This document shows, piece after piece, positions 11,140 through 12,809 of a stretch of 64,000 nt of DNA. Position 1 is the stretch's first letter, and every line of letters starts with the position of its first letter. The position numbers and the translations under genes are program-made. The notes under the pieces are model-generated. The model worked only from the letters and a program-made list of their open reading frames with translations, was not told the origin of the DNA and did not search any database. Source of the stretch: Clostridia bacterium (GTDB lineage: Bacteria; Bacillota; Clostridia; TANB77; CAG-508); NCBI GenBank assembly GCA_900759475.1, contig CAAEVK010000037.1, forward strand, positions 2,080 to 66,079, read 5' to 3'.

Positions 11140-11538
11140 ATGAGTGAAGAAAAGAAAATTGAATTTGAACAATATAAAATATTTATTGATTCAGCAGAAA
11201 AAAATAGTGATAAACGAATAACACAAAATAATATTTATTTGACAATTAATTTGGCATTTGTATCATACATATGTACACAGAATTTTGATATAAAGCAAAC
11301 TATTATAATGATAATTATTGGTATATTAATTTGTATAATATGGTTTTGCACAATTAACAATTATTCGAAAAGGAATAAAGTTAAATTTGAAATAATAAAT
11401 GAAAGTGAATATGGCAAATTGTATAAAGAAGAATGGAAAAGAATTAGTATATTAACAGCACTAACAACATATGAAAAGATAAGTTCATTAATTTTTATTA
11501 TTTTATATATAGCATTATTTGTTATAAAACTAATATAA
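11140..11538 (+). CDS. small 3-TM membrane protein, first gene of the TIR operon (possible SLATT-like effector; inference)
   Basis: GGGGGG RBS. About 35 aa of charged N-terminus, then helices LTINLAFVSYICT, IIMIIIGILICIIWFCTI and SSLIFIILYIALFVIKLI. Confidence 0.6.
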   Translation: MSEEKKIEFEQYKIFIDSAEKNSDKRITQNNIYLTINLAFVSYICTQNFDIKQTIIMIIIGILICIIWFCTINNYSKRNKVKFEIINESEYGKLYKEEWKRISILTALTTYEKISSLIFIILYIALFVIKLI

Positions 11539-11553
11539 AGGAGTGAAGAATAA

Positions 11554-11955
11554 ATGAAAATATATGATTTATTTATTAGTCATGCATGGAAATATAATAA
11601 TGAGTATTACAGACTTGAAGAATTGCTAAAGGAATATAGTTATTTTAATTTTAGAAATTATAGTGTTCCTGAACACGATCCATTAGATTTTAATAGTGTG
11701 AGAGAATTAGTTCAGAAACTAGATGAACAAATAAGAGAAAGTAGTATTGTTTTAGTAATAGGAGGAATGTATTGCAATTACAGAAAATGGATAAAGAAAG
11801 AAATTGAAATAGCTAAAAAATATAATAAGCCAATTTTATTAATAGAACCTTATGGATGCAACAGAATACCAAATGATGTAGAGATTAATGCTAACAAAAT
11901 TGTAAAATGGAACACAAAGTCAATAGTTGAAGCAATAAGAGAATTAGTAAATTAG
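11554..11955 (+). CDS. TIR-like domain protein (ThsB/DUF1863-like)
   Basis: AAGGAG RBS, 15 nt after the previous stop. N-terminal DLFISHAW strand-loop motif and W-x2-KEIEIA with a candidate catalytic Glu. The 133 aa size fits a stand-alone TIR-like domain. Confidence 0.7.
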   Translation: MKIYDLFISHAWKYNNEYYRLEELLKEYSYFNFRNYSVPEHDPLDFNSVRELVQKLDEQIRESSIVLVIGGMYCNYRKWIKKEIEIAKKYNKPILLIEPYGCNRIPNDVEINANKIVKWNTKSIVEAIRELVN

Positions 11956-11975
11956 ATAAAAAGGAGTTAAAGTAG

Positions 11976-12809
11976 ATGAAACATTATATTTATATTGATA
12001 AAGAAATCTTAAATTCATACATATCACAAATATATGGTGGTATCTTAGAAAGAGGAAAAGCTGAAAAAGAATTAGTAGAAAAAGAAACACAAGAAATTAC
12101 AACTCCAGAAGAAAGGATAAGGGCAACTATTAAAGGAGGAATACCAGCAATTTTAAATAGCAATATAGAAACTGAATATGATTTGAAAGAAAAATCAATG
12201 AGAGGAGTTGATAATTCTAATACATCAAAAGAAGTTATTGAAAAAATATATCATGATAATTTGCTAGATAATTTAATTGAATATATAAATAATAATGAGG
12301 AAGTAATTAATAATATTAGTGATATACAATATGGTAAATATGTAGAATTTAAATTACCATTTAATTTTGTAAATCATAGCTATTTAAAGTCTATTAGTAA
12401 TAATGACTTTAAAAAATCATTTGAGAAAATAATGAATGCTACTAATCCAGGAAATGATAAAACAACTAAAGATGCCAAATTTGCTATGGAATTGATTGGA
12501 AATTTTACAACTTTTTTTGATTCATGTTTTCCAGCTAAACAGTTAATAATTAGTAATAATTTAATTATACCATTAGATGATCAATTTTTAAGGGAAAAAC
12601 CAGAAATGATAGATTTTAAGTATGGAGGAGATATAGCAGTAATAGGAAAAGTAACAAAAGATTGTAGCAGAGATATAAATGTATTTGGACTGTATAATAG
12701 AGAATTTGGAAAGGCAATAGAAGAAGTAAGACAGGCTATGTATAATCTATTTCTACCTAATTATAAAAAATCTTTTATAATTACACCAATAGCATTATAC
12801 TTTGAATAA
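11976..12809 (+). CDS. hypothetical protein, third gene of the TIR operon
   Basis: AAGGAG RBS, 20 nt after the TIR gene stop. 277 aa, soluble, no motif I can name. Confidence 0.6.
   Translation: MKHYIYIDKEILNSYISQIYGGILERGKAEKELVEKETQEITTPEERIRATIKGGIPAILNSNIETEYDLKEKSMRGVDNSNTSKEVIEKIYHDNLLDNLIEYINNNEEVINNISDIQYGKYVEFKLPFNFVNHSYLKSISNNDFKKSFEKIMNATNPGNDKTTKDAKFAMELIGNFTTFFDSCFPAKQLIISNNLIIPLDDQFLREKPEMIDFKYGGDIAVIGKVTKDCSRDINVFGLYNREFGKAIEEVRQAMYNLFLPNYKKSFIITPIALYFE

Follow-up and report, generated by a model that had tools for sequence, protein, structure and literature searches.

The stretch of DNA analysed here, called the window below, comprises 64,000 nucleotides from a Clostridia bacterium (assembly GCA_900759475.1, contig CAAEVK010000037.1). 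At positions 11140-12809 of its forward strand lie three closely spaced genes. They encode a small protein with three transmembrane (TM) helices of the Pfam family 8xMP (gene 1), a stand-alone TIR protein of the ThsB type (gene 2) and a member of DUF6414, the family of DolA (gene 3). We interpret the locus as a Thoeris-family TIR signalling system in a "3TM effector" configuration, accompanied by a separable DolA-family gene, and hold this interpretation to be probable, with moderate confidence.

Loci with 8xMP genes were collected from homologue look-ups and from scans of genomes and metagenomes, and they were annotated with custom hidden Markov models; in the last homologue search, the best 120 matches were listed. 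The resulting set contained 22 distinct 8xMP sequences in 39 loci (individual loci are given as L plus a number). A TIR gene was adjacent in 20 of the 22, at a distance of at most about 130 nucleotides (nt) and mostly of at most 18 nt, and the two 8xMP genes without such a neighbour sit at a contig end or are truncated. Because gene 1 belongs to a family that is almost always paired with a TIR gene, it is the best candidate for the effector of the locus, and the near-constant linkage makes 8xMP a strong candidate for a new Thoeris effector.

Four TIR subtypes were found among the partners, and the TIR gene may stand on either side of the 8xMP gene. The pair was found alone as 8xMP-TIR (L011, L026, L028-30, L032, L037, L042), or as TIR-8xMP with a TIR like the type IV TIR of Pseudomonas sp. 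1-7 (L006-10, L027, L040, L041). It was also found as part of an 8xMP-TIR-caspase-TIR arrangement (L001-5, L036) and behind a type II Thoeris system (L047-49). The order seen in the window, 8xMP-TIR-DUF6414, recurred in L022, L023, L035 and L044-46, and in L024, L025 and L031 a divergent DUF6414 protein of 311 amino acids (aa; Pfam 7.9e-28) is encoded upstream of 8xMP-TIR. Even a distant 214-aa 8xMP protein (L051/L052) has a TIR gene 4 nt upstream. Three annotated plasmids, from Haematospirillum jordaniae, Polaromonas sp. and Clostridium perfringens, encode an 8xMP-like "hypothetical protein" beside a "TIR domain-containing protein", to which the C. perfringens plasmid adds a caspase family gene.

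Organisation of the three genes

The gaps between the genes amount to 15 nt (genes 1-2) and 20 nt (genes 2-3), and each gene has a purine-rich ribosome-binding site ahead of its start codon (GGGGGG before the ATG of gene 1, AAGGAG before both gene 2 and gene 3). Since the gaps are this short and a consensus scan found no terminator-like site inside 11140-12809, we read the trio as a single operon. The region upstream of it (11014-11139, forward strand) is likely to hold the promoter and the 5' untranslated region; DNA homology to L045 begins at 11014, directly past the AbiLii stop codon, and candidate promoter-like hexamer pairs, which are consensus matches only, lie at 11071-11100 and 11091-11118. 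On the 3' side of gene 3, the same type of scan yielded a terminator-like hairpin with a 14-bp stem followed by a run of T (13054-13085, forward strand).

Each of the three genes has many homologues. When diverged copies of the cassette were compared, the ratio of nonsynonymous to synonymous substitution rates (dN/dS) was 0.07-0.18 across all three genes, with similar dS among them. The trio thus consists of real genes and not of chance open reading frames (ORFs).

The 8xMP protein encoded by gene 1

Gene 1 (11140-11538, forward strand) encodes a protein of 132 aa that matches Pfam PF24838, the "octameric membrane protein family (8xMP)", with an E-value of 2.3e-22 and a score of 79.7 bits (cutoff 30). 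As the match spans residues 9-131 of 132, the protein is a full-length member. Every homologue of gene 1 that was found carries the PF24838 annotation, and the family comprises 1,507 representatives at 50% clustering. Hydropathy analysis gave three TM segments following a charged N-terminus, and the AlphaFold2 monomer model (predicted local distance difference test, pLDDT, 80) consists of three long helices (residues 3-46, 51-87 and 92-131). Hydropathy and charge distribution together suggest that the N-terminus lies inside the cell. In the alignment, the family-invariant residues lie mostly on two predicted cytosolic segments, namely the N-terminal helix (Y12, S18, E20, S23, R26, N30) and the TM2-TM3 loop (N74, K77, R78, N79, K80, K82, N87, E97, E98), in which K100 and R101 are nearly invariant as well. 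The three TM helices and the invariant charged residues on predicted cytosolic segments are effector-like traits.

Among the Pfam hits at E ≤ 1, gene 1 matched neither the SLATT family nor PF10028 (DUF2270, the family of ThsF), and it matched no PADLOC model. NCBIfam gave no matches, and PHROGs returned families of unknown function only. No 8xMP relatives were found in viral contigs. The name "8xMP" was not found in the literature searched, and the source of the term "octameric" is thus not traceable. The 8xMP fusion proteins P0181 and P0199 were considered as Rosetta-stone fusions to a TIR domain and rejected, as their extensions are extra TM helices only.

The TIR protein encoded by gene 2

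Gene 2 (11554-11955, forward strand; 133 aa) matched the Pfam family ThsB_TIR (5.9e-17), the PADLOC model ThsB (9.5e-12) and the PDB entry 1eiw (MTH538; 7.5e-9). It contains the motif LFISHAW at residues 6-12 and the segment W79-IKK-E83-IEIA, whose W79 and E83 are invariant when gene 2 is aligned with Bacillus cereus ThsB (BcThsB) and with the TIRs of type IV, VII and VIII Thoeris. By these sequence features, gene 2 is a minimal ThsB-type TIR that keeps the catalytic glutamate, E83. The equivalent glutamate is needed for type IV Thoeris defence (E79Q in PsTIR; 10.1101/2024.10.24.620036).

SLOG, Macro and SIR2 domains were absent from all three proteins of the trio (Pfam, E ≤ 1). The effectors of Thoeris types I-III carry a recognised signal-binding domain, SLOG or Macro. 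To our knowledge, the validated Thoeris types IV-VIII likewise have no recognised signal-binding domain of the SLOG or Macro kind.

Much of a preliminary description of this DNA, made from the sequence alone, is borne out by these results. Its three ORFs with their own ribosome-binding sites and gaps of 15 and 20 nt were found exactly as claimed, and hydropathy and structure prediction agree with its charged N-terminus and three TM helices for gene 1. Its assignment of gene 2 to the ThsB class, with a candidate catalytic glutamate, and its statement that SIR2, SLOG and Macro signatures are missing hold as well. It had further proposed the TM protein as a "SLATT-like" effector. The choice of effector agrees with the adjacency to the TIR gene, but the protein belongs to 8xMP and not to SLATT, so that the label can serve as an analogy only.

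Relation to described Thoeris types

Yirmiya et al. (bioRxiv 10.64898/2025.12.03.692087, Dec 2025) searched defence islands for genes that partner TIRs; they proposed 29 putative Thoeris types and validated types V to XI. The accessible part of their Table S1 lists TIR + "3TM" as a putative configuration outside the validated set. The label occurs there at least about 100 times, and many of the "3TM" TIRs share a cluster with the TIRs of type IV (caspase), type VII (SLATT) and type VIII (CMP hydrolase). The signal is N7-cyclic ADP-ribose (N7-cADPR) in type IV and canonical cADPR in types VII and VIII. Gene 2 is 51% identical to the type IV TIR of E. coli 328, 44% identical to a type VII TIR and 54% identical to one listed TIR of the "3TM" class.

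Another listed entry of that class, ga0245322_10014178, is almost identical to the TIR of L024, and the 8xMP protein encoded next to the L024 TIR is 76% identical to gene 1. It therefore appears that the "3TM" class includes the 8xMP family, an equivalence that rests on the TIR partners. A short ThsB-type TIR adjoining a small three-TM protein is what the listed class and the window have in common. The window differs in its DUF6414 gene, and the listing leaves the TM family unnamed; the terms 8xMP, PF24838, DUF6414 and Dodola occur neither in the paper nor in its tables, as far as these are accessible. The preliminary description had suggested a previously undescribed anti-phage system. This has to be given up for the TIR + 3TM pair, which is already catalogued in that work, while the three-gene arrangement with DUF6414 appears to be undescribed. 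Should the pair simply be one more Thoeris type, the finding would be incremental.

Type V Thoeris (ThsB with ThsF/DUF2270, activated by 3'cADPR) also combines a TIR with a small three-TM protein and presumably follows the same logic. For ThsF, a ring with basic pockets between the protomers has been proposed (10.64898/2025.12.03.692087), and the charged invariant residues on the predicted cytosolic segments of gene 1 can be seen as an analogue of these pockets. In contrast to type V, gene 1 belongs to another Pfam family than DUF2270, and the TIR is of a different clade, so that the signal probably differs. Type IV (TIR with the caspase-like ThsE) resembles our locus in its TIR, and 8xMP homologues share operons with a caspase-like gene and two TIR genes; however, a Peptidase_C14 caspase-like effector is absent from the window (ORF list, Pfam). 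Type VII (TIR with SLATT) also resembles the locus in its TIR, with the identity to gene 2 given above, but the trio has no SLATT domain.

Composite loci were observed in two settings. An operon of 8xMP, a caspase-like gene (Peptidase_C14) and two TIR genes occupies positions 6001-8374 of L001-L005, and the same gene content is found in a different order at 1489-3802 of L055, the C. perfringens plasmid NZ_CP065633, which also carries the cpb2 toxin gene. These operons represent type IV Thoeris plus an 8xMP-TIR pair, which suggests two effectors that share or combine TIR signals. In L047-L049 (2795-5818), a type II Thoeris system (ThsB and ThsA_Macro), a 257-aa protein with a weak TIR_2 match and an 8xMP-TIR pair follow one another head to tail as stacked Thoeris variants. 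The 257-aa ORF before 8xMP in L047 was considered as a DUF6414 member and rejected (hhalign probability 0.2%; the weak TIR_2 match was its only one).

The DUF6414 protein encoded by gene 3

Gene 3 (11976-12809, forward strand; 277 aa), in which the preliminary description saw no family that it could name, belongs to the DolA family: it matches Pfam DUF6414 (PF19952) over its full length (1.1e-18, 68.4 bits, cutoff 25). The Dodola system consists of DolA (DUF6414) and DolB, a ClpB-like ATPase (Millman et al. 2022, as cited by later papers). While gene 3 shares with Dodola a full-length member of this family, no gene for a ClpB-like ATPase was found within 9138-15141, and the DUF6414 gene here follows a TIR gene. 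Since gene 3 matches DUF6414 and yet no PADLOC model at E ≤ 1, DolA included, its sequence appears to represent a subfamily apart from the curated DolA. A mechanism of DolA was not found in the literature searched, which describes phenotypes only.

The AlphaFold2 model of gene 3 has a pLDDT of 69, which is moderate, and a disordered stretch at residues 21-86. It had no fold match in the PDB or BFVD (Foldseek, E ≤ 0.001), and sequence and profile searches returned no solved relatives. The best Foldseek matches for the models of genes 1 and 3 were generic helical bundles and OB-like fragments, which were rejected; none reached E ≤ 0.001. Close relatives of gene 3 were absent from plasmid and phage records, and viral contigs held a single distant DUF6414 only.

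A DUF6414 gene lies beside the 8xMP-TIR pair in only 6 of the 22 cases, which leaves 16 distinct 8xMP genes without one. Loci that hold only the pair show DNA homology to the window that is limited to genes 1 and 2, with blocks ending at 11835-11966, and L019 matches the window in gene 3 only. Relatives that share 68% identity with gene 3 are encoded behind an Eco47II restriction-modification (R-M) system with no TIR nearby, and those at 49% and 43% identity stand alone, with neither TIR nor 8xMP nearby. Based on its limited presence, the two kinds of partial homology and the stand-alone relatives, we regard gene 3 as separable from the pair. The cassette seems to have arisen when a promiscuous DUF6414 gene joined an 8xMP-TIR pair of ancient origin. 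The three genes had originally been taken as one system in which gene 3 senses or processes the signal. Co-conservation was confirmed for genes 1 and 2 (20/22) but extends to gene 3 only among close relatives of this cassette, and with most 8xMP genes lacking DUF6414 and relatives at three levels of identity standing alone, an obligatory role as sensor or processor is unlikely.

Two other settings of DUF6414 genes were observed. In L016-L018 (4174-4290) and L020 (3623-3739), stand-alone DUF6414 genes are preceded by a conserved ORF of 38 aa, with an AAA_15/AAA_21 ATPase gene in divergent orientation close by; this may be another DUF6414-containing system. In L012-L015 and L050 (about 1000-9900), an element of about 7 kb is bordered by a fragment for a penicillin-binding protein (PBP) transpeptidase on one side and a PASTA fragment on the other, with a Mur ligase gene directly downstream. 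It contains TnpV, a Dcm methylase with Eco47II, a stand-alone DUF6414 gene, UPF0158, DUF7309 and a large serine recombinase, and it looks like a skin-like intervening element with defence genes that splits a spoVD/ftsI-type PBP gene.

Proposed mechanism

In the mechanism that we propose, the TIR protein would act as sensor and signal synthase: it would sense phage infection and convert nicotinamide adenine dinucleotide (NAD+) into a messenger derived from ADP-ribose. Given the clade of the TIR, the most likely product would be an isomer of cyclic ADPR, for instance N7-cADPR or canonical cADPR. The messenger would bind an 8xMP oligomer at its conserved basic face on the cytosolic side, formed by the N-terminal helix and the loop with K77/R78/K80/K82/K100/R101. 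Binding would open or disrupt the membrane, and the infected cell would die or arrest before phage release (abortive infection). Gene 3 would be dispensable for this circuit, either as an independent single-gene defence module riding on the operon or as an optional accessory. The pore logic assigned to 8xMP is modelled by analogy on ThsF of type V, to which it is unrelated.

If 8xMP acts in this way, a protein of about 130 aa would offer a compact model for the gating of a membrane pore by a nucleotide signal, in a large family that has neither a solved structure nor a published function. As its TIR partners come from clades that make N7-cADPR or cADPR, the family could widen the set of effectors that read such messengers, which eukaryotic signalling also uses. 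The repeated but optional link with a DolA-family gene also provides a lead into Dodola. A bolder version of these ideas would make DUF6414 a functional partner of TIR-membrane-effector pairs, that is, a phage-sensing or gating subunit in a three-component Thoeris variant, and would separately make 8xMP a new class of small pore-forming effectors gated by a cyclic ADPR isomer. We rate it as rather improbable; the partnership of DUF6414, if true, would give a first mechanistic handle on the DolA family.

Several points weigh against our interpretation of a two-gene signalling system with a separable third gene. Defence, signal production and membrane damage are, for all 8xMP-TIR pairs, predictions from their genes, and the sample of loci is modest and comes mostly from gut metagenomes. 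Since 8xMP has no recognisable nucleotide-binding domain (Pfam) and solved structures hold no relative of it (sequence and profile searches, Foldseek against the PDB, E ≤ 0.001), ligand binding and oligomerisation can only be presumed, and "octameric" is used here as the Pfam family name only. DUF6414 proteins of different subfamilies adjoin TM-TIR pairs in three arrangements (those of the window, of L024 and of L019), and the trio moves as one cassette in this lineage; for these reasons, a functional link of DUF6414 to the TM-TIR pair has to be considered. Finally, Yirmiya et al. caution that the TIR in unverified types, to which the listed 3TM configuration belongs, may be an NAD+-depleting effector (10.64898/2025.12.03.692087).

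Taken further, this caution would make gene 2 a toxic NADase that depletes NAD+, with 8xMP as its membrane sensor, anchor or regulator. Bacterial TIRs, stand-alone or partnered, do serve as NADase effectors in several systems, and a small TM protein without a recognisable ligand-binding domain would suit such an arrangement. Gene 2 is, however, close to the E. coli 328 type IV TIR and aligns with the cluster of types IV, VII and VIII, of which VII and VIII have been demonstrated to use cADPR as their signal (10.64898/2025.12.03.692087). Closely similar TIRs are exchanged among partners of the caspase, SLATT, CMP-hydrolase and 8xMP kinds, as would be expected of a shared module that makes the signal, and 8xMP also shares operons with a caspase effector and two TIRs. 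We therefore find a signal-making TIR the better reading and an NADase effector distinctly unlikely.

The other alternative concerns gene 3, which could be an integral part of a three-component system, be it as a phage sensor that activates the TIR, as a second effector that responds to the signal read by 8xMP or as a regulator that restrains pore or TIR. The DNA of L045 matches the window over exactly 11014-12817, that is, over the promoter region and all three genes, despite different flanks (an NgoPII R-M system upstream and an endonuclease gene downstream), and dN/dS is low in all three genes (0.10-0.18 for gene 3). From this block homology and from purifying selection with similar dS, the trio appears to be a co-inherited, functional cassette in this lineage. 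Copies that have diverged to about 71-78% identity (L035 and pairs on the same contigs) still hold the trio, and extra genes or two effectors are known from some Thoeris operons. DUF6414 genes of divergent subfamilies also occur as DUF6414-8xMP-TIR in L024/L025/L031 and as DUF6414-3TM-TIR in L019, where a relative 49% identical to gene 3 precedes a 137-aa three-TM protein and a TIR of another clade. This alternative has to be set against the distribution of DUF6414 given above, with 16 of 22 distinct 8xMP genes lacking it and relatives at 68%, 49% and 43% identity found without TIR or 8xMP nearby. In unrelated systems, moreover, DUF6414 genes are attached just as tightly, one of them 20 nt behind Eco47II and another overlapping MmeI, and the partner of the DolA family in Dodola is a ClpB-like ATPase and not a TIR. 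The 137-aa TM protein of L019 was examined as a remote 8xMP member and rejected, as homology was not detectable. As there are three separate cases of DUF6414 joining TM-TIR operons, we give the three-component system some weight but consider it doubtful, and we retain the separable gene 3.

Genomic setting

The trio is flanked on the same strand by a pair of AbiL genes at 9138-11010, encoding AbiLi (an AAA_21 ATPase) and AbiLii (RloB; PADLOC 1.6e-91 and 2.5e-27, respectively, with Pfam matches to AAA_21 and RloB), and by a gene for a large serine recombinase of 555 aa at 13474-15141 (Pfam Resolvase, Recombinase, Zn_ribbon_recom). The trio is part of a defence island carried by a serine-recombinase mobile element, as the preliminary description had recognised. 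In L022, from the gut metagenome-assembled genome of an uncultured Clostridium sp., DNA identity of about 95% extends over 8961-15554, and the gene 1 protein is identical. The AbiL pair is a separate defence system outside the cassette, since the trio of L045 follows the NgoPII R-M system instead. The 5' part of the serine recombinase gene is homologous in L045, where it lies downstream of the trio.

Such surroundings could also be those of a locus without anti-phage function, for instance a toxin-antitoxin-like addiction or stabilisation module of the serine-recombinase element, or genes with a membrane function unrelated to immunity. The cassettes are always found on mobile elements or plasmids, next to recombinases and toxin-antitoxin genes, which favours this reading. 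Yet their neighbours are overwhelmingly defence genes (R-M, AbiL, type II and IV Thoeris, Abi_2), and the TIR comes from clades with experimentally validated anti-phage signalling, so that we consider a role outside defence very improbable.

A pair of AAA_21 ATPase and RloB genes just upstream of TM-TIR genes was observed not only in the window (9138-11010) but also in L019 (1167-3090) and L047 (1-1761). Its presence in three otherwise unrelated loci may reflect a recurrent association or a common hotspot. A conserved backbone shared by AbiL and TM-TIR was considered and rejected, as the AbiLi-like proteins of L019 and L047 are only 29-33% identical. In two loci, L044 (3829-5115) and L046 (1102-2388), a transposase gene of the IS110 family lies between 8xMP and TIR of an otherwise intact trio, which is uninterrupted in L045.

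Beside the recombinase gene, an ORF on the reverse strand (15203-16021) matches PG_binding_1, LysM and Peptidase_M14, the latter over positions 5-106 of the 286-position profile only. The 3' remainder of this M14 peptidase gene was not found in a loose motif search of the window. It looks as if the gene was cut off next to the recombinase by insertion of the island. At the other end, two AT-rich hairpins with 20-bp stems (8898-8940 and 9049-9091) fall in the 350-nt gap between a ZIP transporter gene and AbiLi. Terminators are one possible reading of them, the left boundary of the island another; the homology to L022 begins at 8961.

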